From Octopus sinensis (lineage: Eukaryota): a stretch of 64,000 nt of DNA. The translations under genes and the position numbers were made by a program. Of the stretch, positions 19,423 through 46,200 are shown piece after piece (position 1 is the stretch's first letter; each line of letters begins with the position of its first letter). The notes beneath the pieces are model-generated. The model worked only from the letters and a program-made list of their open reading frames with translations, was not told the DNA's origin and ran no database searches. The stretch covers positions 64,666,001 to 64,730,000 of the forward strand of contig NC_043009.1 in NCBI RefSeq assembly GCF_006345805.1, read 5' to 3'.

Positions 19423-19522
19423 NNNNNNNNNNNNNNNNNNNNNNNNNNNNNNNNNNNNNNNNNNNNNNNNNNNNNNNNNNNNNNNNNNNNNNNNNNNNNN
19501 NNNNNNNNNNNNNNNNNNNNNN
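19423..19522. other. Assembly gap (100 N)
   Basis: Exactly 100 Ns, typical of a scaffolding join of unknown size. Confidence 0.99.
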
Positions 19523-21124: not shown

Positions 21125-21219
21125 TTTTACTTCTCACTGTATGTTTCTCAGTCGATGACGGCTGAGTTTTTTTGTGTCGTTGCGGTGAGGTTTATCTTCA
21201 GGCACATCTGAAGGGACAC
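21125..21219 (-). pseudogene. CENPC: Repeat exon R7, 95 nt with a 1-nt deletion (pseudo-exon or assembly indel)
   Basis: ttttccatcag|GT GTC CCT TCA GAT GTG CCT GAA GAT AAA -CC TCA CCG...AGT AAA A|gtaagt; one A short versus R4 (GAC AAA ACC). As assembled it reads into TGA. Confidence 0.75.
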
Positions 21220-24035
21220 CTGATGGAAAAACGTTCATGCTTTATAGAGATTTCTAAAAATAATAAACAACTACAAAGAAATATAAGAAAAAAAAAAAAA
21301 CAAGGAACAATGGACGGAAGAAAAAATTAAATGTCAAAAAGAAAAATGAGAAGTGGAGGGGAGAAACAGCAGAATGAGGATAAGATAAGGGCAGAGGAAC
21401 CACCATGGACAGAGCAAGGCCACCCAACCCACCTCTGTTGTGGACAATGAAGAGATGACATCTGCAGGCTGCACCACTGCATATGAGAAAGTGCAGCGTT
21501 AATCCTCAGTTAGGTGAAAGTGCAGGATATTTTAGGAAATATAGATATATGGGCTACATTTATGGGTTTGTCTGGCTAATATCCATCCTGTCTGTCCAAT
21601 CAGGACTGACTCTGGGATATACAAAAACTTGAATGACCCCTAATACAATATTCCATCCATCCAGTTTTGCCACCCACTATTCCTGGGAGGACTGTGGGGG
21701 TAGAGTTCTCCTCAGCCACTTCCTCCAAGGGGTCCTATCAAAAGCAACTGTTGTTACACTTTCCAGCTGGATCCCCAACTGCATCCGTCTGAGACCATAG
21801 CCCTTATCCAACCATTTTGCTGTTGGTCCTACCTTAGGGTCTCCTGCCAGTTGGCCCAGCGTGAAGAATCTGTTTTGTGATTCTTTCCAGTGGCATTCTA
21901 ATCACATGTTCTAAGGGCCAGAGCTGTAGCAGCTTGACCGGGAGAGACTTAATGATCTCTGACCCAACACCCTGTCAAGTAATGTTACTCCAGAGATCCT
22001 TCAGAGAAACCCATTTCGGCCCCTTATATTTTCAATTATATTCTTCTGGTCATTATCCAAAATCCATGGTCATAGGTGAGGACAGGCACAATACTGAATA
22101 TTGAAATTAAAATCCATTTTCTTAAAATATCCTAAAACTGAACAGGGATCAGATCTGTGCCTTTACAAATGCAGTCAATAATTGCAAAAGGTCCCCTAAA
22201 ATATTTGTGCATAAACTTATCTCATTTATAAGAATAAAATGTCCTCCTTAATTAAGGATAAAGAATAATGCCCCTTCCCGAGTCATAGAGACCTATAGGT
22301 CCTGTTTTGGGGTTCCTGGACAGGATGTTAGTCTGTCACAAGATTACTCAGTTTTGCCCACCAAGTGGACCGGAGCAATGTGAAATGAAGAGTTTTGCTC
22401 AAGAACACAACACATCGGCAGGACCCAGGAAATGAAACCACAAATTTACCATCATGAGTCCAGCACCCTAACCACCAAGCCATGTATCTCCACCTTCCTT
22501 TATTTGTACATGATTAAATAAGCAAAAACAATTATGTATCATCATCATCATCATCGTTTAACGTCCGTTTTCCGTGCTAGCACAGGTTGGACGGTTCGAC
22601 CGGGGTCTGGGAAGCCAGGGCTGCACCAGGCTCCAGTCTGATCTGGCAGTGTTTCTACAACTGGATGCCCTTCCTAATGCCAACCACTCCGTGAGTGTAG
22701 TGGGTGTTTTTTACGTGCCACCTGCACAGGTGCCAGGGGGGTCTAGCATCGGCCACGATCGGTTGATACTTTTAACGTGCCACCGGCACGGAAGCCAGCC
22801 AAAGCGGCGCTTGCATCGGCCACGTTCGGATGGTGCTTTTTATGTATACTTGTCATTAAGCAAAGAGAAGCTATTATATACATGTGTATGCCTGTGCGTG
22901 TGTGTGTGTGTGGTGTGTGATCATCATTTAATGCCCATCCTCCAGGTTGACATGGGTTACACAGTTTGACAGCATCCAGCAAGACACAGGGCTGTGCCAA
23001 GTCCCAGTGTTGGCTTTGGCATTGTTTCTATGGCTGGATGCCCTTTCTAATACCAACCACATCAAAGTGCATACTGGGTGCTTTTTTTAAATCTTTATAT
23101 ATAAAAGAGAGGTTGTGTCCTGTCTCTCTCCTACGATTTAGATTCCTAACTACTCCCACATTTTGCGGTGCAGTTTAACCAAAACCGGGTATCTTATAGT
23201 CGTGATTCATATTGAGCCCTTCTGGGTATTAGCGCGCGTCTACGATGAGTCTACGATTTAAAAAAAAATTCACCATCATTTTTTAAATAATTTACCATCA
23301 TTTGTTTCCATTTTAATGCATTTTTTCGCTATTATATAAGGGAAGTAACTCTCTAAAAATGTCTACGATGAGTCAACGATTAAAAAAAAAATTTACCATC
23401 ATTTTTTTCTCATTTTTAATGCATTTTTTTGCTATTTTTTTGGCTATAACTCTCTAAAAATGTTTATATAGTTATTTCCCTTACAAACCCGAGCAACGCC
23501 GGGCGATACTGCTAGTATATATATAACTTACTTTTGCTTTTCGATGTCTGTTTAGCAGTTGGTGATGGCTGGGACATTTTGTGTTTTGAAGGTGAAGATT
23601 TGTTTTCGGGCAAACCTGAAGGTACACCTGAGGTACACGTCATAGCTATTTCAGAAAATGCTGAACAACAAAAGAGAAACAAGGAAAAGAAAGAAAATCA
23701 CAGGTAATACAATAAAAATAAGGTGAGGAAAGGAATGAAAAAATAATAGTGAGAAAGAGTAGAATAAGAGGATGACTATAGATGCATGGTTTAGATAGAT
23801 CAAAAGATTTGCTGGTTGCACTCATTCAGTTGGCTACTTCAGGTATCATACACACCATCCCAATGAGACCTGGCCCAAAGCTGTATATCAAACCTTAATA
23901 TAATTTACATTTGACAGATACTTGTCCTCATCTTGTTTGTTGTTAACACAGCATTTTGGCCGATATACCCTCCAGCCTTCATCAGGTGTCTTGAGGAAAT
24001 TTCAAACCTGGCTTTTCATTCCTAAGGTATTTTTC

Positions 24036-24070
<35 letters not shown>

Positions 24071-27000
24071 TAATAATCGAACTCGGAATCTTGGGGTTAG
24101 TGACCTGAATATAATAATAACATTGAAAAATACCTTAGGAATGAGAACCCAGGTTCAAAATTTCCCCAAGACACCTGATAAAGGCTGGAGGGTGTATCAG
24201 CCAATACGTTGTGTTAACAACAAACAAGATGAGGACAAATATCCGTCAAATGTAAATAATGTATCAATCTTCTTCTTCGCAACAAGGGAGTGTATGCAAT
24301 AGAATATAGAAATAAAATATCACAGAATTTGTTTCAGCAACTCTAGTTTTACTGTTTTCTCAATGATGTTAACACTTTTTACATCATTGATGGACACAGA
24401 TACATACACAGACACAAATATATGTATATTTACACAAACACACAAACGCTACAGGCATCTGCCCATTATCTGTTTACCAAATTCTAACCTCAAGGTATCA
24501 ATCAACCCAATCTTCATCATCAATCATTAACCTCCATTTTTCATGCTGGCATGGATCACATGGTTTAAGAGGAGCTGCACCAGGTTCCATTGTCTGTTGC
24601 GACATGGTTTCTACGGCTGGATGCCCTTCCTAACGCCAACCACTTTAAAGAGTGTACTGGGTGCATTTATGTGGTACCAGCACAGATGCTTTTTACCAAA
24701 GGTATCATAAAAGGCATTAAGGTAACATGCAATGGGATTCGACTCAGAACCATGTGGTAGTGAAAAGAATTTAACAACACATTCATTCCTGCCAGAATTC
24801 CTCAACCACTTTCATGCTTCGGCCCACATCCCTGTGCTTCAACCTTTAATCTAAACTGCTCAGTAACGAATTTTTTCTGCAATTTTAGGATTTATAAATC
24901 TAGCTTCATAAGATGCTAAGGTTAAATTCAAATTACGATGAAAGTAAACGAAGAAAGTTTGCCTTAGAAGCGTTGAGATGTTTTGAAAGATTCAGAAATG
25001 ATTTATCCTCAGACACATGATGATGCTGATAGAATAGCATGGATAGGATAAACTAGCCATATATTGCAGGAACTTACTTTTAGTTTTCAATGTGGATTTA
25101 GCAATTGGTGATGGACGAAGTTTTTTGTGTCGTAAAGGTGAAGATTTTTCTTTGAGTACGCCTGAGGGTACTGCTGGGGAAAAAATTTCGCATTTTATGG
25201 ATATTTACAAAAATAATGAACAAAAGAAGAAAAAAAAGGAAAATAAAGTACAAAATAAAAGAAACAAACAAAAGAAAAATGTAACAAAACAAACGTAAAG
25301 AAAGACTAGAAAGAAAGAAAGAAAGAAATAAGGAGAGAATGAGAAGACTATACTGTGGGACAACAACTGACATGCCGAGGCTAAGTCCACCTCACTCAGG
25401 CTAAGTCCACCTCGCTCATTACCACTGTCGCTCCCACATAAACAACTTTAGTCCCTCCAGCACTGCCAACAGCCCTGTGATTTAATCACAAGATCCAGTT
25501 CAAAGTAAGGCTGAAAAATCCTTTATTAAACATACCTGCATAATATGCATCAAAAAAGACTGAGAATTATTTCTGCCACCTTTCCGTCAAGTTTCTTTTG
25601 GTATTTCGTTTTATCTTCTTTCAGTTATTCTTTACTCTATTTACTCTTCTTATTCTCACAGACTACCATTCATTATTCTTTTGTCTTCTCCATAAATTTC
25701 ACCCATTTTTTTTTTAACTAAAGATAAAAATTCTTTAATACTGAATGCTACTCTGTAACTGGTTTCAGTCATTGGAATACAACCATGTTGGGGCACTGCC
25801 TTCAAAAGGCTTCAGTTGATCATATCAACCCACAATTGCTTTCAGTTTGGCATTTATTTTATCAATATCTATTTGTCAAATTGTTAAGTCACACTTTTTG
25901 ACAAAATATCAGTGTTTTTTTCTTAAGCACTGGTAAACACAGACACAAAAATACACACACACACACACACAGAGACATATGCACAACAGGCTTCTGTACA
26001 GTTTTCACCAACCAAATTGCAATCTTAAGATATCAGTGATCCTGAAGCTACAGTAGAAGACACTTACCCAAGGTGCCATGCAGTGAGATTGAACTCAGAA
26101 CCACATGATTCTATAGCAATCTTGTTAACCACAAAGTTATATACATAAAAACTTACTTTTACTTTTCAATGTATGTTTAGCAGCCAATGGTGGCTGAGGT
26201 CTTTTGTGTCGTGATGGTGGGGTTTTGTCTTTGGCTTCACCTGAGAGTACAAAAAAAAAAGAAACATGGGTGTTTTATAGATAATGCAGAAAATATTAAC
26301 AACAAAGAAGTAAAAAGAAGCAATGGAAATAAAGCAAGAAGAAAAATGAAAAATAGAGGGAAAACGAAGAAAGAAAAGAACAAAGGAACAGCAACTGCTA
26401 CACAGTGTCCAAGTCCACCTTGTTCACCTCAACTGAGGCCATCATATGACTCAATAGATTTTCAGAAACATTGGATAGCAGAGAGATTGCAATACTTGCT
26501 ATGGTAAAAGACAGATAATGTTTGTGTGAAAAGAGCAATGCCATGGAATTGTTTCAGTCATTAGACTGTGGCCATGCTGGGGCACCACCACTGCATGTCA
26601 GAATGTGCAGCATTGGATCACGGCCAGCTGGAGAAATGCCATATGTAGGTCATAGCTGCATGCTTGGGTGCCATATAGGCCCTGCTAAATCAGAACTGAC
26701 AAAAGGTTAACCTCCACCAGTATTTGTATATTTTAATGATTTTATTCAAATTAAAATACATGCTGGTACAACCAAAAAAAAAAGTACCCAGTCCACTCTG
26801 TAAAGTGGTTGGCATTAGGAAGGGCATCCTACTGTAAAAACCATGCCAAAACAGACAGTGGAGCATGGCCCTGTCCTCTGGCTTACCAGTTCCTGTCAAA
26901 CACTGTCCAATCCATGCCATCACGGAAGACAAATGCTAAATGATGATGGAATAGGAAACATAATTGAAGTTCAAATACTACAATAACAGTTATACAATTA

Positions 27001-27566
27001 GGGAGATGTACTTGCATAGAAAGTGACTTGATCTGAGATTGTGTGCTGAAACGAAAACAATTGCAGCGTGGAAGGTGTTTGTAAGCCATTTAAGAAACAC
27101 ACAAAAGCCGTTCGATTCACTTCAACATTTAAGTTTAATTTGTCAAAATATTTTCGTTGCTTTAAGACCGTGACCTGTTCACTGACAAAAATCTGAGATG
27201 CATCTACAATTGTTTAGGCTATAAGCCCCCACCACACACAATCTCTTTCTCTCTCTCTCTCTTTATATATATATATATTTATTAAATATAGCCACAAAAC
27301 ACGTGTCGTTATTCTACCAAACATATATGTTTTTATTATTATTTTGCAATTTACTTAAACATTGGTATATTATTGTTATTTTACTTCTAATATTTCTATC
27401 ATATGTAATTTTCTAGAAGGTGTAATTTAATTGTTCATTTTGAATTGATAAAAGGTGGGATTTTTCTAATTTATATATATATATATTATATTTTGTGAAA
27501 TTTGATTTGGTATTTCTAAATTGAATTTTTCCCTGTAAGTTAGAAATAATATTCCTCTAAAATAAT

Positions 27567-27602
<36 letters not shown>

Positions 27603-30600
27603 ACGGAGATGTACTCGCATAGCAAGTGATTTGATCTGAGATCGTGTGCTGAAACAAAAACAATTGCAGCATGGAAGGTGTTTGTAAGCCATTTAAGAAA
27701 CACACAAAAGCCGTTCGATTCACTTCAACAATTAAGTTTAATTTGTCAAAATATTTTCGTCGCTAAAATCCGCAACCTGTTCACTGACAAAAATCCGTGC
27801 TGCTGATATATATATATATATATATTACAGAGATATTTAAAACTATTCACCATGGAATTCATTACAATATTTGTTGTAAATGCTCAAAGCTGACAGTAAA
27901 ACAGTCAGAGGCACTATTAACAATAAGTGAGTAGGGAAGAGTACAAGGCCATCAGGGATAGTCACTAAGATACTTAAAATATCTCTCAAAGTAGGTCATG
28001 TGCTAGTTGGTCTCTCAGTTAATCAGGCAGCACAGACAGCTGTCACACCCAATGATTTGCACACCTGTATCATTAGGTACAACAACGATATGACAATAGC
28101 AAAGGAGAAGAACTAAAGAGAGGTCACCACTGAAGCACCAAAATGATTGGTGAGATTGTGAAAGTCAGTGTGTTTATAGCACAAGGGGTTAGGAACAGAA
28201 TTAACTGGGAAGGGATGCTGAGGCCAGTGTCAAAGGGAGACAACTGCGGATAGGATCTTTTACTTGTTTCAGTCATTTGACTGTGGCCATGCTGGAGCAC
28301 CGCCTTTAGTCGAGCAAATACACCCCCAGGACATTCTTTGTAAGCCGAGTACTTATTCTATTGGTTTCTTCTGTTGAAAGCTAAGTTACAGGGATGTAAA
28401 CATATCAGCATCGGTTGTCAAGCGATGTTGGTGGGGGGTAAAAACACAGACACACATATATATACAATGTCTTCTTTCAGTTTCCGTTTACCAAATCCAC
28501 TCACAAGGCTTTGGTCAGCCTGAGGCTATAGTAGAAGACACTTGCCCAAGGTGCCACGCAGTGGGACTGAACCCGGAACCATGTGGTCAGTAAGCAAGCT
28601 ACTTACCACACAGCCACTCCTATATTTAGTATAAAGCCTTTGTGTCAAGTATGTGACAACCTAGAGAAGGCATTTGCTAAGATCCCACGTTCTGCAGTCT
28701 GACAGTGAATTAGGAAACAAAAGGTAGATGAATGACTCATTAGAGCCACTCAAGCCATGCACAAAAGTACAATCAGCTACGTGAAGAGTTAGCAGTGAAT
28801 TCAGCAGAAAATTTAGCATGCAGTTAATGATCAGTTCTTAGTCATCTACAGGGGGGGGGTTTTTTTTTTTTTTTTTTTGGTTTCCCATACCAGAAGAGTC
28901 CAAGACTAGCATTTAATGAAAAATGCCATGTTCTGAGGATTTGTTCTTACAGCTGAAAATGTAAGAGAGTTAGGCAATTCCAGGCATGAGAGCAAAACCT
29001 ACAATTCAGGAGACCTCAAAACAAACTTAACAAAAACTAAAGTTTTAGTAAAAATAAGAAAGAACGCAGCACCCTGCTTGTATCAGGAAAATTACATTGA
29101 TTGATCTATAGGAAGAAAAGAAAGACAAGTAGAAATTCCAGTGTACCCAGAATAAACTATGGGTGAACAAGTGACGTTATAGAAAGCTCACCAGCAGACT
29201 GGCAGAGAAGGTAGGCCTTAAAACTGTGGCAGATGGAGATTATTGTAAGAATTAACCCTTTCGTTACTGCATTTCTGTTGAGATCCTCTCTGTTTCTTTC
29301 AATTACTTTAAATATAACAAAGAATTTAGTAAAATAACTTAGTTATCATTCAGCTAGTGTTAGGAACATAAATTGTGACTAAAGTTTGGTGGAAGATTTT
29401 AATTCAAAACTTATGAAAATAAGACATTTATATACAGAGCCGGTTTCAGCCGGGTTGGTAACGAAAGGGTTAATGTAAAACCAATTCTGTTAAATACTTG
29501 GAAGACTCCCTTGAAGTAGTTGAAAGCCTTCGCTACTTAGATTACCGAATTAACAGTGAAGATGGAGGCTTCAAGAGCACTGTAACTGAAGCAAGAAATT
29601 GCAGGAAAAGTTCCAGGAGTTACCATTTCTGTTGGTAACAAACTGCTTTTCTCTTCCATGGTAAATGACAGATAACAATGTTTGTGTGAAAAGAGCAACG
29701 CTGCATAATAAGAAGGGTATGGACTTGCTTCAGTCATTAGACTGTGGCCATGCTGGGGCACCATCTTGAAGAATTTTAATCAAATGAATCAATGCCAGGA
29801 CTTTTGGCTTTTTGCATTGAAGCCTGGTACTTATTCTATCAGTCTCTTATACTGAACCACTAAGTTATAAAGATGTAAACACACCAACACCAGCTGTCAA
29901 GCAGTGGTAGGAAACACTCAAAGAAAAACACACACACTAAATATAACCCATGCTAGCATGGAAAGCGGACGCTAAACGATGATGATGATATAGTTACGTA
30001 TATATATGTATATATATATTTATTTACCTATGTATATATGTGTGAATGTATATATATATATATAAACAGTTTTCTTTCAGCTTCTGTCTACCAAATCCAC
30101 TTACAAGGTTTTGGTCAGCCCAAGGTTATAGTAGAAGACATTTGCTCGAAGTACCATGCAGTGGGACTGAACCTGGAACTTCTAACCACACAGCCACGCT
30201 TATGCTTTAATCATTTTACCTCACTAATCCTCTGCCCAATTCACTATACCACATGGGTCATGGCAGATGGTATTCCATTCCACCACCACCCTGTCGCACT
30301 GCATCTTTATTCCATCACAACCATCTGTGTAATGAGAGAAGACATGAGAAGCATTTCAATTCAACAACGCCCTACCAATACCACTCTTTGCTCCTGGGTA
30401 TCACCCTCCTCACCATCACCCTTAGTGGTGGCATCCGTCCCTTTCTTTCATAATTATCTGTCATTATTGTTATCCTGCAATCGTCCTCCCTCCTTCTCTC
30501 CCCCTCACACACACACACACACACACGCATACATGTCACTTACTTTTATTCCTCAAGGTCTGTTTCTCAGGTGATGTTGTCGGAGGTTTTTTGTACCGAG

Positions 30601-33600
30601 AAGGTGAGGATTTGTCTTGCGGTACACCTGAGAGAACAAAAGAATTTCATAATTTACAGGTAATTCTGAACAACAACAACTTCAATGGAAACCGGAAGAA
30701 AAACAGAAGGAAGAAACAAAAGAATGGAAAGTAAAAAAATAGAAAAAGAGTTAAATCTCTTTACAAACACCAACCAATGGTATGGTCACTCAGAAAAAAA
30801 AAAAATCTATGTAGTGCTTTTAACATTCCAGTGAAACGATAAGGAAAATGGTCATCTGTGGATGGTACCCAGTTATTGGAGCAGTACCTAGGTACCACAC
30901 ATTACCACACATCCGTTGACCAGGGTCTAAAGGGTTGTTTTAAGATTCTCATAATGCATCAACATCATCGTCACTTTCCCATGTTTGCATGCGTTGGATG
31001 GAGTTTATTGAGAGATATTTTCTACAGCTTTATGCCCTTTTGTCAGTAACAAGGGTGGGAAGTAAAGTAAAGGGACCTTCTCAAGTTATGCTGAGTCATA
31101 AGGACCAGTTTCCTGGTTCCCATGGTGTATAAATTCCCCTCTTGGATAGGACGCCAGTCCATCGCAGAGTTACTCATTTTTGCCATTTGAGTGGACTGGA
31201 GCAGTGTGAAATGAAGTGTTTTGATCAAGGACACAGTGCGTTACCTGGTCCAGGAATTGAAACCACAATCTTACAATCATGAGCCCAACACCCCAACCAC
31301 TAAACCATGTACCTTCACGAGGAGTGGGAGGAGTAAGGGAATAGATAAAGCTGGAATGATGATAGAGTAAAACTTTAAATGTGGTGAGCTGGCAGAGATG
31401 TTAGCATGCCAGGCGAAATGCTTAGTGGTATATCATCTGCCGCTACGTTCTGAGTTCAAATTCTGCCGAGGTCAACCTGGCCTTTCGTCCTTTCGGGGTC
31501 CATAAATTAAGTACCAGTTATGCACTGGAGTCGATATAATCAACTTAATCCGTTCGTCTGTCCTTGTTTGTCCTCTCTGTGTTTAGCCCCTTGTGGGTAG
31601 TAAAGAAATAGGTATTTTGTCTATCTTTACGTTATGAGTTCAAATTTCATTGAGGTCATCTTTGCCTTTCATCCTTTCTGGGTTGATAAATTAAGTACCA
31701 GTTACGCACTGGGTCAATCTAATTGACTGGGACCCCTGTCCAAAAATTTCAGGCCTTGTGCCTAAAGTAGAAAAGAATAAATGCCATTACCGAGGCGGTG
31801 AGCTGGCAGAAACGTTAGCACGCTGAGCAAAATGCTTATTGGTATTTCGTCTGTCTTTACTTTCTGAGTTCAAATTCCACCAAAGTCGACTTTGCCTTTC
31901 ATCCTTTTGGGGTTTATAAATTATCAGTTGTGTACTGGGGTCAATCTAATCGACTTCTCCCCCACCTCCCCCAAAATTTTGGGCCTTGTGCCTTGGAGTA
32001 AAACTTGATGACTATATGTGTATTTGTTAACTTACTTTCTCTTTTGTAGTTCAATGTATGTTTAGCAGTTGGTGATGGTTGAGGTTTCTTCCGTTTTAAA
32101 GGTGAGGACTTTTCTTGGGGTACACCTGAAGGAAAAGAATAATAAATTTAAAGATATTTCGGGAGATAAGGAACAACAACCAAAGATAAAGGGGAAAAGG
32201 ATGGAAAAGAGAGAAAAAGAAAGGAAAATAGAAGAAAAGAGGAAGAATAGAAAGGAAAGAAAAATAATTTAAATGAATTTTCTTTTTTTCAACATGCAGA
32301 GAATAAAAGAAGAATGGCAAAATAAAATAAGAGAAAAAAGAAGATAAAATGGTAAAACTGGTTGTTTGACAAATTTTTTCCTGTTTTTGAAAATTTATCA
32401 GAAACATCAAAAGTTGCAGGATTATTTAGATATGATGAGATCAACACTTGCATCATTTTAACATTGCAGGCATCATCATCATGAAAGGGAGGAGGAAGAT
32501 GGGAGGGAGAAGAGGAAGGTGGAGGGGTACAGTAGAAGGCTAAAGAAGGAAAAGTGAAGAGAAGGGAGAAAGGTAGAGGTAGAATGAAGAGAAGACGAAT
32601 GAGAAGAGGAAGGGGATATGCAGAGGAGAAAGAGGAAGAAGATGTGTGGGGAGGAGGAACTCACTTTTACTTTTCAATGTCTGTTTAGCAGTTGGTGATG
32701 GCTGAGGTTTTTTGTGTCGTAAAGGTGATGACTTGTCTTTGGGTACATCTGAAGGTACATCTGAAGAAAAGAAAAAAAATTTCAGATTTTACAGGTATTT
32801 CCGAAAAAAAAATGAACAACGCTTATAGGCGCAGGAGTGGTTGTGTGGTAAGTAGCCAGTCGAGGCGGCGATGGCAGTGTTTGATTTATTTAAACAGGTA
32901 AGATGACAAACCTTTATTTTTTTCTGCAGATCTGCCACCACTTTCTGGTTTCTTTACAATCTTCGTAGACTTTTTGAAAGTCTTTTCATTCTCTTCAATA
33001 AGAGACAAGTTGGTATCAAATACATCAAAGTAGCGTGTCTGGACTGTTGGTTTATGAACCCCAAATGCAGAAATCATTTTTCTGGGCGACTCTTTAATTT
33101 TCTCTGGACTAGCGCTGAAGCTGTCAGGAAAAAAAAAAAAAAAGGGAAAATTCCAAATACAAATTAATAAGATCTGATAGCTTCACAACAGACAAAGTAT
33201 ATCACTAACCAAGTTGTGATCTCTGTGCATCCATGTGTGTGTATTACAGAATGGACTAAACAGAACAAGATACACATGGGATGGAGAGTCACCAAAGAGG
33301 TCACAGGATGTGATGAAAGCTTTCAGAAAAGACACTAAAATAGGAACAATAATAAAACTGAAGTGAACACTAAGTATATACTGCAGGTGGTTAACAGACA
33401 AAAACAATATGACCATTCCCAAATATCATCATCATCATCATCGCTTAACGTCCGTTTTCCATGCTAGCATGGGTTGGATGGTTCGACCAAGGTCTGGGAA
33501 GCCAGGTGGCTACACCAGGCTCCAGTCTGATCTGGCAATGCTTCTACAGCTGAATGCCCTTCTTAACGCCAACCATTCCGTGAGTGTAGTGGGTGCTTTC

Positions 33601-34207
33601 TATGTGCCACCGGCACAGGGGCCAGGCCAGGCTGGCAATGGCCACGATCGGTTAGTGCAACTATATATATATACACACACATATGTAAAGTACAGTGACA
33701 CATTATGGTTAACCTAGAGATACAAAAGAGATAAGTGACAACAAAAAGATAATAGAAGGAAAGAACAAAAGAAGAAATTGCGGAAGTTACCTTTCTGACA
33801 CTGTCATCTTCCTCTTTTTTCTGGTTGATACAGCTTCTGGCAAAACCTGTGGAGAATATATAAGATGACATCGTAGAATATGGAATATAATTATTCACTT
33901 TTATATATATGTATATATATATATATATATGCATACAGGGTGGCCCCAAATGTGGGTTTGCAGTTATCATGTAGGCACTTTAAATTTCTTTTAAAACATT
34001 TTATTACATTTAAATTTCTATCTTTCAATTAACTAAATTAGCATAGAATAATGGTTTCATATTTTTTTTATAATTGAGATCTAAACTGTTGATATATGAA
34101 TGCGAAAGAGAGAGTTGAAGAATTGGAAATCTACTTTTGGGCCACCTTGTATATATACATGGCCTTGCTTTTTGCTTTTTGAGCCCAAAAATTAACTAAC
34201 TAACATA

Positions 34208-34264
<57 letters not shown>

Positions 34265-37200
34265 ATGTATATATATGAGTTGATGCCAGTAGTGCCTGAC
34301 TGGCTCCCATCCCAGTGCCATGTAAAAGGCATCATTCAATCTTGACCAATGCCAGTGGCACATAAAAAGCACCACCCAAGCATGGTCGACGTTAGTGCCG
34401 CCTGACTGGCTCCTGTGCCAGTGACACGTAAAAAGCACCCACTACACTCTTGGAGTGGTTGGTGTTAGGAAGGGAAAAGCTGTAGAAACCTTGCCAGATC
34501 AGATTAGAGCATGGTGTAGCCTACTGGCTCACCAGTCCTCAGTCAAACCGTCCAACCCATGCCAGCAGGGAAAACGGATGTTAAACGATGATGATGATAA
34601 GTTTTCATCTTTAAAACCTTAAATACAAAACCTAAAGAAATATTGACCATCAGGGCACGTAAAAAGCACCATCCGATCGTGGCCGTTTGCCAGCCTCGTC
34701 TGGCACCTGTGCCACGTAAAGAGCACCCACAACACTCATGGAGAGGTTGGCGTTAGGAAGGGTATCCAGCTGTAGAAGCCTTGCCAGATCAGACTGGAGC
34801 CTGGTGCAGCCTCCTGGCTTCCCAGACCCCAGTTGAACCGTCCAACCCATGCTAGCATGGAAAGCGGATGCTAAACGAAGATGATGATGATGATGAATAT
34901 AACGATTCTGTCAGGAAAAGATGCAGCACCAGTAACATTCAGTAGCACTCCTAAAAAATTCACACACACACAGTACATACATACATGCTTAAGTGAGCAC
35001 GCATACATCCATCAATGCAGACCGGTTCTTTTTTGATCGAATGTATTTGTTGTTTAAAAAATGAGATTGGATCTGTCCAAGGTTAATCTTCATTACTCGC
35101 GCACACAGAAATATGTGTGTGTGTGTGTATCATCATCGTCATTTAACGTCCACCTTCCATGCTGGCATGGGTGGGAGATATATATATATATATTCTTTAA
35201 TTCTTTTATTTGTTTCAGTCATTTGACTGTGGCCATGCTGAAGCATCACCTTTAGTCGAACAAACTGACCCCAGGACTTATTCTTTGTAAGCCTAGTACT
35301 TATTCTATCAGTGTCTTTTGCCGAACCACTAAGTCACAAAGATATAAACACATTATCAGTTGCCAAGTGATGTTGGGGGGGACAAACAGAGACACACACA
35401 CACATATACAACGGGCTTCTTTCAGTTTCCGTCTGCTAAATCCACTCACAAGGCTTTTGTCGGCTCAAGGCTATAGTAGAAGACAGTTGCCCAAGGTGCC
35501 TTGAAGTGGGACTGACCTGGAATCATGATTGGTAAGCAAGCTACTTACCGTACAGCCACTCTTGCACCTATATATATATATATATACCTTTGAAATGTTT
35601 TGAGGAAGGTTTACATAATGGATGCATTTCCTAATATGACATAATGAAATTACTGTGTATAGTGCTCAGGTGCACTACAACTCATCAAAGGTGAATGTAC
35701 AGTACATAGAATTATGCACAAAAGTCAGGAAAGTGAACAGTGTATGAGTCATGATATACGTGTGTGCATGCATATGGAGCGGGGGGATATCAGGTGTAGC
35801 ATTGGCGAATTTCAGGAAACAGGGAGGTTTTAAAGGATTACTTTTTTTTTACAGACTCCGATGACTCTGAAGTAGAAACTGTGAACCACACTGACAATGT
35901 TGTAAGTATCTTTTCAATTATTTCATTCAAATTCTTCCCATGAGACCTTTGGTGATTTGCCACGCTTGAGAAGACCTCTCAAGTTGAGCGAAATCTTAGT
36001 CATGGCCAATGCCAGTGTTGCATAACTGGAACGTTGGGCAATATGCTATGCTTGAGAAGACCCCGCCAAGCCAAGTGAAATGCATTCTGCCTGGTGTGCT
36101 AACGGTTCTGCTAGTTCACCACTGCCTTAATCCCAAATTATGTTAATAAAATTTACTTACATCTTCATTTTTTATATTGTCATTTTCTAGATCATCCTCA
36201 TTTTCTTCATCATCTTCATTTTCTGGAAAACAAGATCAAAAGTAGAAATAATACATTTCTAAATCTCTCAGAGAGATTTATACAGTAGTAACATGATAAA
36301 GTGGTGGCATGTTATCAACTTAATGTGACGGTCCCATGAAAGGGAAGAATACTACTGCTATTTAGCCCTAGGAAGCAGCACCACTTCCTGTCAGCCTTGA
36401 CACATTTCCTGTGTCCTATTTTCGAAATCAGTGAATGTATTACACTTGAATTATTATATGTTAACGGAGGCAGATAGACATCAATAGTGAGCAAGCCTTG
36501 CTACTCCAGACTGATGACAAGCAATGACTCAGAAACTAGTCTCTGGATGCTGGCTTTGCTGGGTGGAGATGCTTATCTCCCCATTTGTAAACATAAGGAC
36601 CTGCCTACCTCAGTTGCTATGGCATTGAGGCAGATTGGGCCACCCCCATTAGCAAGGACAAAACCCGATTTAAAACACTTGATGATGATATATATACTGG
36701 TTAGGGATATGAAATCTGGCAGAAACGCTAACAGGCCAGGCAAAACGCTCAGCAGAATTTCGTCTGCCGTTACGTTCTGAGTTCAAATTCCACCGAGGTT
36801 GACTTTGTCTTTCATCCTTTCGGGGTTGATTAAATAAGTGCCAGTTATGCACTGGAGTCGATATAATTGACTTAATCCGTTTGTCTGTCCTTGTTTGTCC
36901 TCTTTGTGTTTAGCCCTTTGTGGGTAGTAAAGAAATAGGTACCTTAGGAGCACACTAGTATAATCCTGGATCTGGCTAACCACAGTGAATGATGTGGAAC
37001 AACAGGAAATTGTTAAAGGTAAACAATCACACAGTATTTCACCTGATGTGTAAATCCTGATTTCACCTCTTTCAATTATACACCATCATCATCGTTTAAT
37101 GTTCGTTTTCCATGCTAGCATGGGTTGGACGGTTCGACCGGGGTCTGGGAAGCCAGGAGGCTGCACCAGGCTCCAGTCAGATCTGGCAGAGTTTCTACAG

Positions 37201-40200
37201 CTGGATGCCCTTCCTAACGCCAACCACTCCATGAGTATAGTGGATGCTTTTTACGTGTCACCGGCACAGGTGCCAAGGGAAGCTGGCAACGGTCACGATC
37301 AGTTGGTGTTTTTTACGTGCCAAGGGAGGCTGGCAATGGCCACGATCGGTTGGTGCTTTTTACTTGCCACCAGCACGGAAGCCAGTCAAGGCAGCGCTGG
37401 CATCGACCACGTACAGGTGATGCTTTTTACGTGCCACCAGCACAGGTATCACAACTACAATTTCCATTTGATTTTATTTTGATGTACTTGACTCAATAGA
37501 TCTCCTCAAGCACAGTATATTCAATGGGCTTCTTTCAGTTTCCATCCACCAAATCCACTCACAAAACTTTGGTTGGCTTGGGGCAATAGTAGAAGACACA
37601 GAAGACACTCTGGGTGCCCTGCTGTGAGACTGAATCCAAGACAACATAGTTGGGAAGCAAGCTTCTTAACCACCCACAGATCCACGACTGGGGGTGGGAG
37701 ATGTTCGCTAAGGAGGAGGAAGTCACCAACAGAAGAAAAGTTGCTGAATTCATTCATGTAGTCATTGAGAAAGAAAGAAAAAATGAAAGAAACAATTTGG
37801 GAGAAAGAAAGAAAGTGAATGAGGGAGAGAGAAATGAGTGAAAATGAATGAGCAGAAGATACAAAACCTTGACATTCCTTTGAACTTGAAAGACTCGTGT
37901 TGCCTCCATTTTTGACGGTTGTCTCTGGTTCTTCAGCTGATGGATCACAGACATTTGTGGAGAGAGATTCCTTTGTTGGGGACGAAGCAGCCTTTTGGAC
38001 AAAAGATTCCTCATCTTCAGGAAAAGATTTCATACCTCGCTTACTGATGATTCTGACATTGCTGTTAGAATTAGAGACTGCTGAAGACACTTCAGGTGTC
38101 TTTGTAGTGGTCACCTCCTTCTCTGAGACTATCACTTCTTGATGGTCACCGTCTTCAGAGTCAGCAGCACTAGTGTCGGCTAATGACTTCATTCCACGTT
38201 TACTGATGACTCTTTGCACATATGAAACCCTTCAAAACAAAACGAAAGCATTATTAATGAACTGTTTTCTGTATTTATTTTATTTATAGAAACAGAATTC
38301 AAAGAAAAAGAAGCAACTTTCAAAGTCAAAATCCTGATTTCAAAGAAATACATCTTTGAGATTTTTTAAGACATCCTTTTGTCTTTGAAAATTGGACCCA
38401 AAGGATAGGCATCATCATCATCATTTAACATCCGTTTTCTGGGCTAGCACGGGTTGGAGGGTTCGACCGGGGATCTAGGAAGCCAGGAGGCTGCACCAGG
38501 CTCCAGTCTGATCTGGCAGTGTTTCTACAGCTGGATGCCCTTCCTAATGCCAACCATTCCCTGAGTGCAGTGGGTGCTTTTTACGTGCCACCAGCACAGA
38601 TGCCAGGGGAGGCTGGCAGCAGCTACGATTGGTTGGTGCTTTTTATGTGCCACCAGCATATGTATCACAACTACAATTTCCAATGATATTTATTTTGATG
38701 TACTTGACTCAATAGGTCTCCTCAAGCACAGCAGGTCATGAGCCACCGGCACAGAAGCAAGTCAAGGCGGCCGGCGCTGGCATCCAATTTACAAAAAAGT
38801 ACTTCATCATCAACATTTAACATCCACTTTTCCATACAAGCATGGAAAAGTGGAGGTTGTTGGGGAAGATTTTCTCAGCCAAATGTTCAAAACATTTGGA
38901 CTAACAATGTTTGCAGCTGAAGAGAGCTTTAAACCATCTTTTATATCAGTAATACACTGATGTAAGAACGGATTGTTTATAAAGCTTGAAACACGTGTAC
39001 CACGATATCCTTTGTATTCTGTTTTTAATTTTATTTGATATATATCATCATCATCGTTTAGCGTCCGTTTTCCATGCTAGCATGATTCTGCCTATATGTC
39101 TGTGCACACCTTTGAATGCAATATATGCAAATCAAAAGACATTTTAAGATGCACAGAGATCCGAACTTATCTGCAGCTCTCGGTGGTCCAAATCGGATAT
39201 GCACTCAATGTAGGTGTCTTTTCAGAACATTGCCTGATTTAAAAAGCCATATCAGATGCCATGATGGTTCTAAGGTGTAGGTACAGAAGGTGGTCAAACT
39301 CTGCATAAGGGGTAGACAACCACCGTGATTGAGTACTAGCCCCTAAAGCATTTTTTTATTCTCTCTGTATTTTCTGTGTTCCTTTCTGCTGAAGAGCATA
39401 GACTCAAAAAGTAAAAGACTTTCTCACCTTCCTGAGCATTAAACTAATACACCTGTTTGTTATTTATATATCTGTCTTTGTCATTGTTTTTTTTGTAAAT
39501 TCCGTGACATCCACCTTGCGAACGACACACTGGTCTCACGCCATTTCCGCTCCACCGGTCACTCCTTGCAACACCTATCTGTGTTCGGTTTGTCCTTACA
39601 CAGAGGCCATCCGGATTCCCGTTTGCGCCGTGAACAGGAATTAATCTTCTCTCTTCGCTCTTATACGCCATTTGGTCTCAACTCTCCCCCCCCCCTCTCC
39701 CCCCTCCTCACCTATCCTTTCTCCCCCCGACCCCTACTTCTTCAGTCCTTCATCCTTTCACCCCTACTCCCCTTCCTTCTTCCCTTTCTCCCTCCCTCTT
39801 CCCCTTCCCTCTGCTCCCTCACTCCCTCTCTCCCCTTCTCTCTCTCCCCCTCTCCTCTTTCCTCCTTCATCCCCCTCCTCACCTTCCTTCTCCCCCATCG
39901 TCTCCTCTTCCCCTTTCTCCCCCTCCCCCTCTTCTCCTCACTACACCACATGACTTTACACATCACATCACATATGATGTGCCATACTAATACACACACA
40001 ACTAATACATACTAATACGTACTAATACATACTAGTACATACTAATACTTACACCAACCCTATACATACACACGTCCAGACCCCGCATACGCACTTATAC
40101 TCTCTCCACACACACACACACACACCTATACATACCAATACGTACTAATACATACTAATACATACTAATACATACACCAACCCCATACATACGCACGTCC

Positions 40201-43200
40201 AGACCAATCTTACGCACTAATACTCTCTCATACACACACACACACACACACCTTATACATGCTAATACATACACCAACCCTATACATACACACATCCAGA
40301 CCCCTCCCACGCACTTTTAGCTGGTCCCTCAACCCTTATCAACCCTATTATCTCCCCTTATTTCGCTCTCGCGTCTCATGTTTGATCTTGACCTCTGGCC
40401 GAAATCAGATCGCCATGTTGATTCGTTAGCTACTGCACGCATTTTTTTTCTCTCCTTCTTTCTGTGTTTTTCTCTCTCTGCGTATCTTTCTGTTGAAGAG
40501 CGTAGGCTCGAAACGTTAAAGACTTGTTTTATTTATATTTCCTGAGCGCCATACTAATACAATTGTTCGTTTGTTTTCCACCTGCCTTCGTCTTTTGTTT
40601 ATTTTCATAAAGCTTCCCGTTATATATATATATATATATATATACAAAATGGGACAAGAACACAAAACAACCAGACAATTAGGTGATACAAGAAAGGGAC
40701 AGCAAAGCATCCAGATAGACGATACAAAGAAAACAAGGATGGGTCATTCGGAGTTTTCTTTCCTCAGTCGAGTTCCAGATTATCTTTGCAATTTCGGCTG
40801 GTTGTACTTGAGATTGCTCTAATCTGGCCAGCCCCAAGGAAAAACTAAGCTAAGAACACTAGATTCCTTGGAAGCAACGAATGTCTATGGAAACAAGGAC
40901 AGAATAAAACGGAGAAATGGTACACAAATACAAATAACAGGACATAACAACAGGTGTCTTTCAACTAAGGACAAATTAAATTAAGCTGGCGTGCGTGTGT
41001 GGAAGTAAAGCCTTACGGCAGGGACAGGGAGGAATATAGATGTTGCACGGATGGTAGTCGAACCAAATTAGTGTGTACTTTATGTGCATATGTATGTGTG
41101 TGTGTATGCATACACATACAATATATTCTCTTTTATCCAAGAACTTAAAAATAAGAAGAAACACTTACTCTTCAGAAGCGTTTGAACAAGAATCTGTCAT
41201 TGACTCAACAGGAAATGATAATCTGCAAATAAAAGGCTCTCGTTTAATAACCAAACAGAAAAATACACCTCAAAATACACCCCACATCCTCCAGTCCTAT
41301 AGAAATATATCTCTCAAAACACAGAACATTCTGACACATTATAAAGTGGGATGAGTTTTTTTTCTTTTTTGTTTTAATAAACCTTCTCAATTACACAATG
41401 CCTGTACGACATTTTACAACTCTCCCTCGCCATCCCCCACTCCATATCAACATCCTCTTCTTCATTTTAAGGCTTTGTCTTTCATCCTCACCATCATCGT
41501 TAACGTCCGCTTTCCATGCTAGCATGGGTTGGACAGTTTTGACTGAGGGCTGGCGAACCAGATGGCTGCACCAGGCTCCAATCTTGATCTGGCAGAGTTT
41601 ATACAGCTGGATGCCCTTCCTAATGCCAACCACTCCGAGAGTGTAGTGGGAGCTTTTTACGTGCCACTGGCATGGGGCCCAGTCAGGTGGTACTGGCAAC
41701 GACCTCACTCAAATCTTTTTACACATGCCACTGGCACAGGTGCCAGTAAGGTGATGCTGGTAACGATCACGCTCGAATGGTGCCCTTTACGTGCCACCGA
41801 CACGGAAGCCAGTTAGCCGCTCTGGCAACGATCATGCTCAGATGGTGCAGTAAGGCGACGCTGGTAACGATTACACTCAAATGATGCCTTTTATGTGCCA
41901 ATTTTCTATAACATAATATATATCATATAATTTTTGAATAGCTCGACCCCCAACTCAACCCCTAAAATACTCTTCTTGCTATAGTCTTTAATAAACAACC
42001 CAGAAATTAGGACAAAACATTGAGGTAAATCACCAACATTTAACATCCTTTCCCCATGCTGATCTGGTTTGGATTGTTTAACAGGAACCAACAAGCCAGA
42101 TGACTGTGCCTAGCTCCCTACTTTGGTCTGGTCTCTATGGCTGGGTGCCCTTCATAAGACTAATCACTTTACAAAGTGTACTGAGTGCTTTTTTCATGAC
42201 ACAAGCACGAGTGATGTTTCGCAAATACCTAAAAGACAAGATCCCTTCAACCGAATGGGAAATGGTATCGAAGGAAATGAAATTATGATAGAGGGACAGA
42301 AACAGGCCTTACTCAATATCATTTGTTTCTAACATAAGCACATGCCCTGAAATTTCATGGAGGGATTTTATGATAATAGAATTTATTTTTAAGCTTACCT
42401 TTTCCTGGAAGGGAAATTTGAGAGAGAAAGAGGGGACACACTACTCTTGGCATCATCATCTGCTGCCGGTTTTACAGCCACTATTTTCTGAAATAAACAA
42501 AAATAATATTAATATCTAAATAAATAATTCACATAATAATCCTCAACATAATAGATATTCTTTTCTACTGTAGGCACAAGGCCCAAAATTTTGGGGGAGG
42601 GACAAGTCAATTAGATCGACCCCAGTAGGCAACCGGTACTTAATTTATTGACCCTGAAAGGATGAAAGGTAATGTCGACCTTGGTGGAATTTGAACACAG
42701 AACATAGAGATAGATGAAATACCTATTTCTTTACTACCCACAAGGGGCTAAACATAGAGGGGACAAACAAGGACAGACACACGGATTAAGTCGATTATAT
42801 CAACTCCAGTGTGTAACTAGTACTTATTTAATCGACCCCGAAAGGATGAAAGGCAAAGTCGACCTTGGCTATGCATTTCGCCCACGTGCTAACGTTTCTG
42901 TCAGCTCGCCACCTTATCAACATAATAGATATTAATATAATAATCCTGTTGCAATTTTTTGCTTTTTTATGACTTGACCATAGGAAGAAAAGAGAACATC
43001 TGTGACCCCTTCTAACCTGATGAGAGAAAAAGAAGAAATTATGCTCAGAGGAAATTCTGTTAAAAGTACTCAAGGATCAAGTGGTGATGGGCAACAGATT
43101 AAATTAATCAGAAAAGAGCAGGTCCTGCCTGTACAATGGACTTCCACAGTTTGCCTGCCACTCACATGTGGCAATCATGTAGCAAGGGTTCTAAGTGATT

Positions 43201-46200
43201 GCAGTGGAAGGTTGGCAAAGAAAATTCTGGTACCTCCACCAAAACTACTAAAAGCCATGATGAATCGTTTTCTCCCACAAGCCTTTAGTCCGTCTGGAGC
43301 CATAGTAGAGGGTATTTACCCGAGGCTCCACATAGTGGGGACTGAACCCAAGACCATATGGTTGGGAAGCAAGCTTCTTCACCACACTGCAACATGGGAA
43401 AATATCATCATCATCATTTAATGTCCATTTTTCATGCTGGCATGGGTTGAACATTATCATCATCATCGTTTAACGTCCGTTTTCTGCGCTAGCATGGGTT
43501 GGACGGTTCGACCGGGGTCTGGGAAGCCAGGGGCTGCACCAGGCTCCAGGCTTATCTGGCAGAGTTTCTACAGCTGGATGCCCTTCCTAACGCCAACCAC
43601 TCCGTGAGTGTAGTGGGTGCTTTTTACGTGCCACCTGCACAGGTGTCAGGGGGGTCCGGCATCGGCCACGATCGGTTGGAGCTTTTAACGTGGCACCGGC
43701 ACGGAAGCCAGCCAAGGCGGCACTGGCAACGGCCACTGAAAACTAGTAAGCTGGGAGCTGCACCAGGTCCCAATCTGATTTGGCCTGGTTTCTATGGCTG
43801 GATGCCCTTCTTAATGCCAACCACTCCAAGAGTGTAGTAAGTGCTTTCTACGTGTCACTGGCACGGGTGCCAGTTACGCAACACTGGCATTGGCTATGAT
43901 TTCACTCAGCTTGAGAGGTCTTCCCAAGCGTGGCACATCACCAAAGGTTTCATGGGAAGAATTTGAATGGAAAAATTGAAAAGATACTTACAACATTGTC
44001 AGCGTGGTTCACAATTTCTACATCAGAGTCATCGGAGTCTGTAAAAAAGTAACAAAATAACTTATAAATCATTTAACCTTTACGTGGTTATGTTCTTAAT
44101 GAAGCAGACTACCTGTGTTAGGAAAAGCTGTGGTAAGAAACTCGCTTCACAGCCACATCGTTTCAGGTTCAGTCCTACTGCAGGGCACTTTGGGCAAGTG
44201 TTTTCTACTATAACCCTGGGTCGACCAAAGCCTTGTTAGTGGATTTGGTGAAAAAAAAAACTGAAAGAAACCCCTCATATGTGTGTGTGTGTGTGTTTGC
44301 CCTCACCTGCTGCTTGACAGCCAGTGTTGGTGTGTTTACATCCCTGTAACTAAGTGGTTCAGCAAAAGAGATGGATACAATAAGTATCAAAAATAAATAA
44401 CTACTGGGGTCGATTCACTCGACTAAAGATTCTTCAAGGCAGTACTCCAGCATGGCCACATTCTAATGACTGAAACAAGTTAAAGATACTACAATCAAAA
44501 CCTTGTAGGTTTTTGTAAAATATCTGAAACTTAATAGATTAGGTTTTGTTGTTAAGCATTAAGGTTTGATAGAGCAGACCTATGGCCGAAAGCAGTCCAA
44601 TCATGACCATCAAGAGGTATGCAGGATTATCTGCTTTGTCTTTTCTTTTACAAAAACAGCAGTTATTGGTGAGGGAAGGGGAGTGTCAGCTAAGGCATTG
44701 TTTAGCCCCCACCCCACCCTAGTGAACCCTAATCCAACAGATCATTGAACAATAATAATTTTTCAGCCATGACGACATGACAATCTCGTCATAGTGTATC
44801 TAGAACAACATCATCTAAGGTGTGCTTACTCTTTACTCTTTTACTTGTTTCAGTCATATGACTGCGGCCATGCTGGAGCACCGCCTTTAATCGAGTAACT
44901 TGACCCCGAGACTTATTCTTTTGTAAGCCCAGTACTTATTCTATCGGTCTCTTTTACCGAACCACTAAGTGACGGGGACGTAAACACACCAGCATCGGTT
45001 GTCAAGCAATGCTAGGGGGACAAACACAGACACACAAACACAGACACATATATATATATATACATATATACGACAGGCTTCTTTCAGTTTCCGTCTACCA
45101 AATCCACTCACAAGGCATTGGTCGGCCCGGGGCTATAGCAGAAGACACTTGCCCAAGATGCCACGCAGTGGGACTGAACCCGGAACCATGTGGTTGGTAA
45201 GCAAGCTACTTACCACACAGCCACTCCTGCACCTATGAGTTTTTGCTTGCTGAGTTTTTTCTCTTTTAAAACAATTAGATGTGGTTTGAAAGAGATTTGG
45301 CTGCTATTTCTAGCAGATTGCATGATCATTTAGAAGATCTTTCTGTGGAGGAGGAAATAATTAAAAGAATTTAATTGGATGTGTTTCTCGTTACCAGTTT
45401 CTGTAAAATAGTCATCGAAATTTTCAAATCCGTCTTCATCAATTCGAATACGTTTCCCTTCCAAAATACCCTTTCCTAGGTTTCTGAAAACAACAAAAAT
45501 TAATTAATTTTAACAACACTCAATTAGCAATAATTACAAATATAGTTAATTGTTAATTAATTTTTATGATATAAACATTTTAGTTCCATTTTTTCTTTTT
45601 CCTCTCTGATATCCATTCCACCTGCGCAAGCATGAAGAAATAATAATAATAATAATCCTTTCTACTATAGGCCCAAGGCCTGAAATTTTGGGGGGAGGGG
45701 ACTAGTTAATTACATCACCCCTCCCCCCAGTGTTTCACTGGTACTTAATTTATTGAGTCCAAAAGGATGAGAGGCAAAGTTGACCACAGCTGTATTTGAA
45801 CTTAGAACATAGCAACAGGCAAAGTACTGCTAAGCATTTCATCCGGCATGCTAACAATTCTGCCAGCTTGCCGCCATAATCATCATCATCATCATCGGTA
45901 CTGGCTACGGCCACGTTCGGATAGTTTTCTTGTGTGCCACCAGCACTGGTACCACAAAGATACAAATTCCATTGATGTTCATCTATTTTGATTTGTTTTG
46001 ATTTTCACTTGCCTCAACAGGTCTTCACAAGTGTCACAAGAAGGAAGGTATGCACAGGTGGACTGACTACGTCCCAGGTAGGGGCCACGGGTTATGGCCT
46101 GACTAGTCTTGCCGGGTCTTCGGATGGTGTTTTTATGTGCCACCGACACAGGTGCCAGATGAGGCTGGCGAACAGCCACGATCGGATGGTGTTTGTTATG

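Follow-up and report, generated by a model that had tools for sequence, protein, structure and literature searches.

Tandem symmetric exons encode a basic repeat array in a CENP-C-derived octopus gene

Introduction

The window analysed here is a 64-kb stretch of the Octopus sinensis genome (64,000 nt; RefSeq assembly GCF_006345805.1, contig NC_043009.1, positions 64,666,001 to 64,730,000 of the forward strand; positions below are those of the window unless a contig is named). It carries seven homologous minus-strand exons of 96, 90, 84, 84, 96, 96 and 95 nt (R1–R7), each encoding one copy of a basic unit rich in Ser-Pro (SP). An initial annotation placed them in a CENP-C-like gene and proposed a phospho-regulated, nucleic-acid-binding module whose copy number is tuned by splicing. 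The locus raises three questions: whether the gene belongs to the CENP-C family, whether the array is spliced in variable form, and what such an array could do.

The repeat exons and their sequence

The lengths and positions given for R1–R7 were confirmed, and the exons share 67–85% identity over the 21 possible pairs. They are listed with their representation in gene models, counted over the 17 O. vulgaris and 8 O. sinensis models among those listed (two cluster members lie outside).

32665–32760, minus strand: R1, 96 nt; a second acceptor 12 nt inside gives an 84-nt form in 4 of 17 O. vulgaris models; present in 25 of 25 models
32036–32125, minus strand: R2, 90 nt; missing from 5 of 17 O. 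vulgaris models
30544–30627, minus strand: R3, 84 nt; present in 25 of 25 models
26157–26240, minus strand: R4, 84 nt; present in 25 of 25 models; lacks a full cyclin-dependent kinase (CDK) site (TPPSR)
25078–25173, minus strand: R5, 96 nt; a CAGCAG acceptor gives a 93-nt form; missing from 4 of 17 O. vulgaris and 2 of 8 O. sinensis models
23532–23660, minus strand: R6, 129-nt form in contigs and a 96-nt form from 23627 in some models; missing from 8 of 17 O. vulgaris and 3 of 8 O. sinensis models
21125–21219, minus strand: R7, 95 nt in the assembly and 96 nt in two contigs; missing from 6 of 17 O. vulgaris models

Each exon is preceded by CAG and followed by GTRAG. The introns between them measure, in order, 539, 1408, 4303, 983, 1450 and 2312 nt, within the range of 0.5–4.3 kb first given. 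All seven begin in phase 1 and R1–R6 also end in phase 1, as had been read from the sequence; R1–R6 are symmetric in the assembly (length divisible by 3, equal phase at both ends), and R7 is symmetric in the contigs. The missing base of R7, noted as an indel in the initial annotation, is likely an assembly error, because two contigs (two samples, one study) read 96 letters across its 95 bases in the genome, with a single gap. The 96-nt form in these contigs also led us to reject R7 as a pseudo-exon; the deficit could alternatively be a real allele of the sequenced animal.

The array is confined to this locus. R1 DNA gave five matches in the 2.7-Gb assembly, all inside the window, which rules out a dispersed genomic repeat. 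A DNA profile of the repeat, run over the window and 20 kb of the contig that carries the cupin exons (see below), found exactly seven copies (E 4e-41 to 6e-31; next best E 1.7) and no decayed extra ones. No 31-mer is common to any two repeat exons.

The consensus CDK site, S/T-P-x-K/R, occurs in six of the seven window units, R4 being the exception as annotated; the R7 site was taken from the O. vulgaris orthologue because the reading frame breaks in the window. A second SP is found in five of seven, in keeping with the claim that most units carry one. All copies keep frame and a net positive charge (+2 to +8 per copy), and the octopus array as a whole has a K+R fraction of 0.24 and a net charge of +43 over 257 residues. 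Structure prediction from a shallow alignment modelled the repeats without structure (predicted local distance difference test, pLDDT, below 50).

Identity of the gene

Sixteen window exons translate exactly to O. sinensis RefSeq isoform X1 (P0021), which ends within R7. The large exon at 37868–38229 is 100% identical to the O. sinensis RefSeq protein 'unc-89' and 97% identical to O. vulgaris proteins with a C-terminal CENP-C cupin. The O. vulgaris and O. bimaculoides proteins continue beyond the O. sinensis model with an intact R7, an eighth repeat (R8), a linker and the cupin. In O. sinensis, three cupin exons lie at the extreme end of an unplaced contig (C9568, about 59748 to 53800, minus strand), and the assembly yielded neither the eighth repeat exon nor the exon for the linker; the link between array and cupin thus rests on the proteins of the other two species. 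A 100-N assembly gap (19423–19522) stands 1.6 kb beyond R7. This gap and the likely one-base error leave the O. sinensis gene truncated in its annotation, where it is called 'unc-89' or 'dao-5'.

The cupin scores 41 bits against PF11699 (cut-off 29). The top four of its five matches in a PDB sequence search were Cnp3, CENP-C, CENP-C and Mif2, all weak (E 0.004–0.65). In a fold search with the model cupin (pLDDT 80–92), cupins of chicken CENP-C and of Cnp3 took the first five places. The three best language-model clusters for the protein also point to CENP-C, which we treat as a lead only; a match to EGFR was rejected as low-complexity. The N-terminal exon and the cupin exons each have one match in the assembly, indicating a single-copy gene, from which distant paralogues could escape; no other CENP-C-like gene was found in the genome by searches that would detect distant ones poorly. 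Genome-wide searches at family level, for PF11699, SANTA and CENP-N, were blank and uninformative; the latter two weigh little because such searches also missed the known cupin exons. The window gene is accordingly a CENP-C-type gene, as first proposed, on evidence that lies outside the window.

A feature overlooked by the initial annotation concerns the 24-residue CENPC motif, the defining feature of the family (Talbert 2004, PMC549713). In a limpet CENP-C (P0031) and another relative (P0032) the motif lies 218–219 residues from the C-terminus, and the two detect each other with a score of 45 (0 of 200 shuffles). Tested with these two reference motifs only, two octopus and two cuttlefish proteins gave scores at the level of shuffled sequence (41–176 of 200 shuffles), and a profile search of the octopus and cuttlefish proteins was blank. 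The position 218 residues from the C-terminus falls in R6/R7 in octopus, and the O. vulgaris protein has no tryptophan at all. The gene is filed here as CENP-C-derived and not as a canonical member, because the cupin is recognizable in its sequence and the motif is not. TTRSMRN, a word before the cupin, was considered as a motif remnant but is not supported as one, as it fails to align with similar cuttlefish words and is not the best motif match. Repeats derived by decay from the CENP-C motif exon were likewise considered; profile and motif-scoring searches gave no signal. Limpet CENP-C (P0031, P0041) has HK in the usual position of the aromatic pair, and motif erosion may be wider in molluscs.

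A CENP-A-like gene

The layout of the protein resembles that of dragonfly CenpC, and a survey of mollusc histones (PMC12210499, Table S2) lists CENP-A in none of 5 coleoids vs 14 of 23 other molluscs, with none for O. sinensis. For these reasons the genome was searched with the H3 fold, and all 104 of 104 candidates were scored. An intact two-exon H3 variant was found on chromosome-scale contig C17 (about 24278670–24278852 and 24285232–24285474). Its N-tail is unrelated to that of H3, to which the protein is ∼ 60% identical, and at the two diagnostic positions it carries Met in place of Gln and Trp in place of Phe; a divergent N-tail and the absence of Gln and Phe are the features looked for in PMC4359364. 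With the second half as query, a segment picked once the sequence was known, H3 ranked below chicken CENP-A chimeras and Cse4; the whole exon ranks H3 first. Loop 1 shows no extension, being as long as in H3, the Thr of KRVT (numbered 118 in PMC4359364) is retained, and the C-terminal tail ends NGDI. Taken together, we hold with good confidence that the C17 gene is CENP-A-like. Since it is intact, CENP-A has probably been kept in O. sinensis. Octopod karyotypes have been scored metacentric to telocentric, which are monocentric types (PMC5646656).

The same search brought up a multi-copy H3 family (75–80% identity) and other divergent H3s on unplaced contigs (C8311, C10743, C2235, C8692, C2292, C1794 and others). 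Three long stretches of these contigs have no microsatellites, and one gene has an apparent tiny intron. The H3-bearing unplaced contigs look like DNA of another eukaryote in the assembly.

Splicing of the array

Contigs from 4 of the 23 listed sequencing runs were aligned to the window. No run is on record as RNA, and the contigs were judged to be spliced because exon is joined to exon. The initial annotation would have fallen had no spliced sequence run through these exons, but public contigs do splice through them: exon 9 (immediately ahead of the array) and R1, and R5 and R6, are joined end to end in run X5. A 2118-nt contig from another study (run X8) has 450 nt between exon 9 and R6, which fits only R1+R2+R3+R4+R5. 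Both listed contigs and 9 of the 9 O. vulgaris models that contain R6 use the acceptor at 23660, so that R6 is mostly a 129-nt exon; the 96-nt exon of the initial annotation survives as a form in 3 of 8 O. sinensis models.

Annotated isoforms hold 5–8 repeats. R1, R3, R4 and R8 are present in all 17 O. vulgaris models, R2, R5, R6 and R7 are absent from some, and skipping of R5 and R6 is annotated in both species. Contig ends offer an indirect line of evidence that is independent of gene models. The two contigs over R7 extend beyond it by 26/22 nt in one case and 26/26 nt in the other, and another contig ends 4 nt past R6. With 31-letter words, and with the first bases of the eighth repeat inferred from protein, these lengths are as expected for R7 bypass and unlike those of intron retention (28/30); they fit R7 skipping. 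We conclude that R2, R5, R6 and R7 are likely skipped in some transcripts. Copy number does appear to vary by splicing, but in four of the eight repeats and not, as first suggested, through any of them.

Origin of the array

Homology between flanks is alignable for ∼ 60 nt upstream of the exons only (reached by 0 of 100 shuffles). From 60 to 150 nt upstream only a pyrimidine-rich composition is in common; further upstream, three of 15 pairs align better than shuffled sequence (at most 3 of 200 shuffles). Past the donor, the downstream flanks show no clear homology. Duplication of whole exon-plus-intron units, as initially claimed, therefore holds for the acceptor side alone. The pyrimidine fraction over 150 nt upstream is 0.69–0.84 for R2–R7, 0.63 for R1 and 0.45–0.62 for nine other exons. 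A block of 12 nt that closes with CAG opens the long units R1, R5, R6 and R7; the short R2–R4 align from this inner AG.

Across octopus species the copies group by position (support 52–100), which indicates that the array predates the O. bimaculoides split and has not been homogenized; concerted evolution was looked for and not seen. The order of duplication has tree support of 22–60 only. O. vulgaris has eight repeats; in O. bimaculoides a further unit stands between R5 and R6, and R1 is missing from the model. Constraint among the paralogous repeats is weak: the proportion of non-synonymous differences is 0.229 vs 0.343 for synonymous ones, and the ratio of non-synonymous to synonymous substitution (dN/dS) is 0.35–1.19 over 15 pairs. 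The cupin is the best-conserved part of the protein (92.7%).

Among 1.84 billion representative sequences (5 hits), there was one close non-octopus relative, whose first 200 residues are 96% identical to a cuttlefish protein. The repeat unit is absent from the cuttlefish orthologue, where it scores at best 0.7 bits vs 41–64 bits for octopus copies. In place of the array, cuttlefish has a non-repeated tract of 199 residues (K+R 0.30, net charge +49) with no sequence likeness to it. Both tracts are basic, which suggests that a basic tract was kept though its sequence was not. The lack of an array in cuttlefish places the expansion in the octopus line, within the limits of the one decapodiform lineage compared. 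Of the independent cephalopod expansion first proposed, lineage specificity stands and the cephalopod-wide extent does not; among orthologues, octopus arrays vary in repeat number and cuttlefish has none.

The rest of the gene model

Upstream of the array the gene comprises the following features.

47974–48011, minus strand: start-codon exon (MALSTAQIRT); exons taken by coordinates translate to RefSeq P0021
45395–45483, minus strand: N-terminal motif exon (LEGKxI...GFxNFDxYF, common to cuttlefish); single match in the assembly
43992–44038, minus strand: acidic coding exon (RefSeq translation)
42399–42487, minus strand: coding exon (RefSeq translation)
41169–41222, minus strand: coding exon; forms KRLSF, kept in cuttlefish, with the preceding exon (translation, cuttlefish comparison)
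37868–38229, minus strand: large exon with two ISKRGMKS motifs kept in cuttlefish (contigs, translation, cuttlefish comparison)
36161–36222, minus strand: acidic coding exon (RefSeq translation)
33791–33846, minus strand: coding exon (RefSeq translation)
32912–33120, minus strand: exon 9, with a phase-1 end and [FY]GVH and TNLxxI motifs common to cuttlefish (contigs, translation)

The N-terminus presumably resembles Mif2-type N-termini. From its position only, the motif at 45395–45483 is a candidate contact with the outer kinetochore (Mis12 complex); no CENP-C chain was matched when it was searched against PDB. Both ISKRGMKS motifs are near-invariant between octopus and cuttlefish despite whole-protein identity of 30%, and match no known sequence. 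They are candidate nucleosome or partner contacts.

Three further observations concern this region. An intron further downstream in the gene holds an inverted copy of coding exon 4 and its flanks (35845–36032, plus strand, vs 43867–44048, minus strand; identity in 169 of 188 columns); it may pair with exon 4 in the pre-mRNA or may be a dead copy. The O. vulgaris model P0020 adds N-terminal coding exons that match 51251–51334 and 55421–55462 (minus strand); as the first carries a stop in O. sinensis, both stretches are probably untranslated here. Finally, within 37976–38175 of the large exon, contigs and assembly differ by several T>C and A>G changes (plus-strand letters), which could be alleles or RNA editing.

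Discussion

We favour, with moderate confidence, a model in which the array is a disordered, strongly basic, DNA-binding tether whose length is varied by exon skipping and whose charge is lowered by CDK phosphorylation. In the octopus line, at a time when O. bimaculoides had not yet diverged from O. vulgaris and O. sinensis, one phase-1 exon with a long pyrimidine-rich acceptor would have undergone tandem duplication, and its symmetric phase would have allowed copies to be gained, lost or skipped in frame. Dimerization through the cupin would bring together two arrays of 5–8 units and so permit multivalent contact with DNA. The array may bind centromeric DNA without sequence preference, adding affinity; without the CENP-C motif, partner proteins or the conserved ISKRGMKS motifs would have to supply centromere specificity. 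Phosphorylation of up to eight full CDK sites could then weaken the array's hold in mitosis. In maize, almost all of the DNA/RNA binding of CENP-C resides in the duplicated basic exons 9–12, which also help target it to centromeres (PMC2816676). In chicken cells the CENP-C motif is dispensable, the cupin and the CCAN-binding region (CCAN, constitutive centromere-associated network) being needed (bioRxiv 2022.08.17.504347), which makes a motif-less octopus protein plausible. A bolder version, which we regard as doubtful, is that coleoids have CENP-A centromeres with a motif-less CENP-C and that in octopus a splice-tunable, CDK-switched DNA-binding array of 5–8 units, standing in for the lost motif, would allow centromere grip to be set through the choice of exons in each cell type (germ line, embryo, post-mitotic neurons).

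Several points weigh against the tether model. Basic disordered tracts are common, and charge alone is no proof of DNA binding. The excess of CDK sites (8 observed vs 2.4 in shuffles) counts as one event, because the sites are copies of one unit, and only 5 of 8 O. bimaculoides units carry the site vs 7 of 8 in O. vulgaris. The repeats are not clearly faster-evolving than the N-terminal part (identity 84.4% vs 89.7%, Fisher p 0.08). The isoform lists are automatic gene models; no direct skipping joint is among the joint-table rows seen, in a table filled by repeat elements; and the skipping may be noise. Orthology rests on the cupin and single-copy status and not on a tree. In vertebrates, moreover, CDK1 controls an interaction with CENP-A that is confined to M phase, the opposite sense to charge neutralization (PMC9252888).

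The alternative that survives best, possible although somewhat unlikely, is that the array is a tolerated spacer. It would be a disordered linker, possibly containing nuclear-import signals, enlarged through neutral tandem duplication; splicing noise among exons that look alike would account for the skipping, which does no harm since the reading frame survives. The weak constraint and the dN/dS values above are consistent with this view, as are a copy set that varies by species (the extra O. bimaculoides unit), tandem acceptors at +3 and +12 nt that resemble sloppy splicing, and the lack of sequence likeness to the cuttlefish tract. A mere spacer accords less well with copies that have all kept their frame and positive charge, with the absence of decayed copies from the DNA searched, with a cuttlefish tract similar in size and charge at the same place, or with four repeats retained in every O. 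vulgaris model.

It is improbable that the units form a phospho-docking scaffold, in which CDK1-primed K-S-S-P units would dock a Polo-box or similar reader and recruit kinase in proportion to repeat number. The Polo-box consensus is S-pS/pT-P, which S-S-P fits, and seven of the eight O. vulgaris units contain S-S-P. Kinetochore proteins primed by CDK1 are known to act as PLK1 receptors (PMC9252888). However, only 3 of 8 O. bimaculoides units keep S-S-P, and the basic residues are better conserved.

Less probable still is that the gene left the kinetochore after losing its motif and was co-opted as a general chromatin-binding or other nuclear protein. The motif is undetectable in octopus and cuttlefish alike, and the SANTA and CENP-N searches were blank, for what little these count. 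Yet no second CENP-C-like gene came up in the searches, insensitive as they are to distant ones, conservation within the protein is highest in the cupin, and the CENP-A-like gene is intact. The weakest alternative, a dragonfly-like state of CENP-A loss, in which centromeres do without it and the array takes over from histone recognition altogether, follows the dragonfly protein layout (PMC4359364) and the coleoid gap in the histone survey, but is largely refuted by the intact C17 gene, the scored octopod karyotypes and the survey's failure to list CENP-A in nine other molluscs as well (PMC12210499).

The array takes up a theme already known for CENP-C, that of basic exons in tandem; symmetric, partly skippable exons in a motif-less protein, with CENP-A apparently present, are undescribed in the literature searched. 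That literature (searched by title in part, and mostly non-subscription) held no earlier report of octopus CENP-C, of its exon skipping or of a cephalopod or mollusc CENP-C of this kind. It gave a cupin without the motif only for dragonflies, there with CENP-A loss (PMC4359364). If true, a CENP-C without the motif in a genome that retains a CENP-A-like gene would offer a natural test of the motif's dispensability seen in chicken cells. The natural isoform series of 5–8 units would bear on how much non-specific DNA affinity CENP-C needs and on selection of the centromere-drive type. A practical gain is that the O. sinensis annotation 'unc-89'/'dao-5' can be corrected to a truncated CENP-C-type gene.

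Comparison with known systems

With animal and fungal CENP-C, Cnp3 and Mif2 (PF11699; PDB 7x85, 6o2d, 2vpv, 7xhn) the octopus protein shares a long disordered middle, a C-terminal cupin and apparently single copy, and its short conserved N-terminal motif may correspond to theirs; it differs in having no detectable CENP-C motif and, in O. vulgaris, no tryptophan. The cuttlefish orthologue (P0030, P0036; P0042 from Acanthosepion pharaonis) has the N-terminal motif, KRLSF, two ISKRGM, GVH, TNL, the basic tract and the cupin in the same order, and its CENP-C motif is likewise undetectable, whereas overall identity is 30% and there is no repeat array. At about residues 705–775, before the cupin, cuttlefish P0030 has two finger-like units with four cysteines (Cys4; W-x-C-x2-C...C-x2-C) that are absent from octopus and have no Pfam match. 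Dragonfly (Odonata) CenpC resembles the octopus protein in keeping the cupin with an unrecognizable CENP-C motif (Drinnenberg 2014, PMC4359364). Dragonflies, however, are holocentric and without CenH3, whereas the octopus genome keeps a CENP-A-like gene and octopods are scored as monocentric types.

The closest parallel is that of grass CENP-C exons 9–12 (Talbert 2004, PMC549713; Du 2010, PMC2816676), a precedent that the initial annotation had rightly named. In both, exons have been duplicated in tandem in the poorly conserved middle of CENP-C, the units of ∼ 30 residues are rich in basic residues, and copy number varies among species. Grasses duplicate pairs of acidic and basic exons, in 2–4 copies, and keep the CENPC motif; octopus has eight single symmetric exons, four of them annotated as skipped, SP in most units and an undetectable motif. 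Binding to nucleic acid has been demonstrated in maize, for DNA and with stabilization by single-stranded RNA (PMC2816676), and is inferred in octopus. The best reading is that the octopus array is convergent with the grass exons, homology not being claimed, and repeats in an animal what grasses did.

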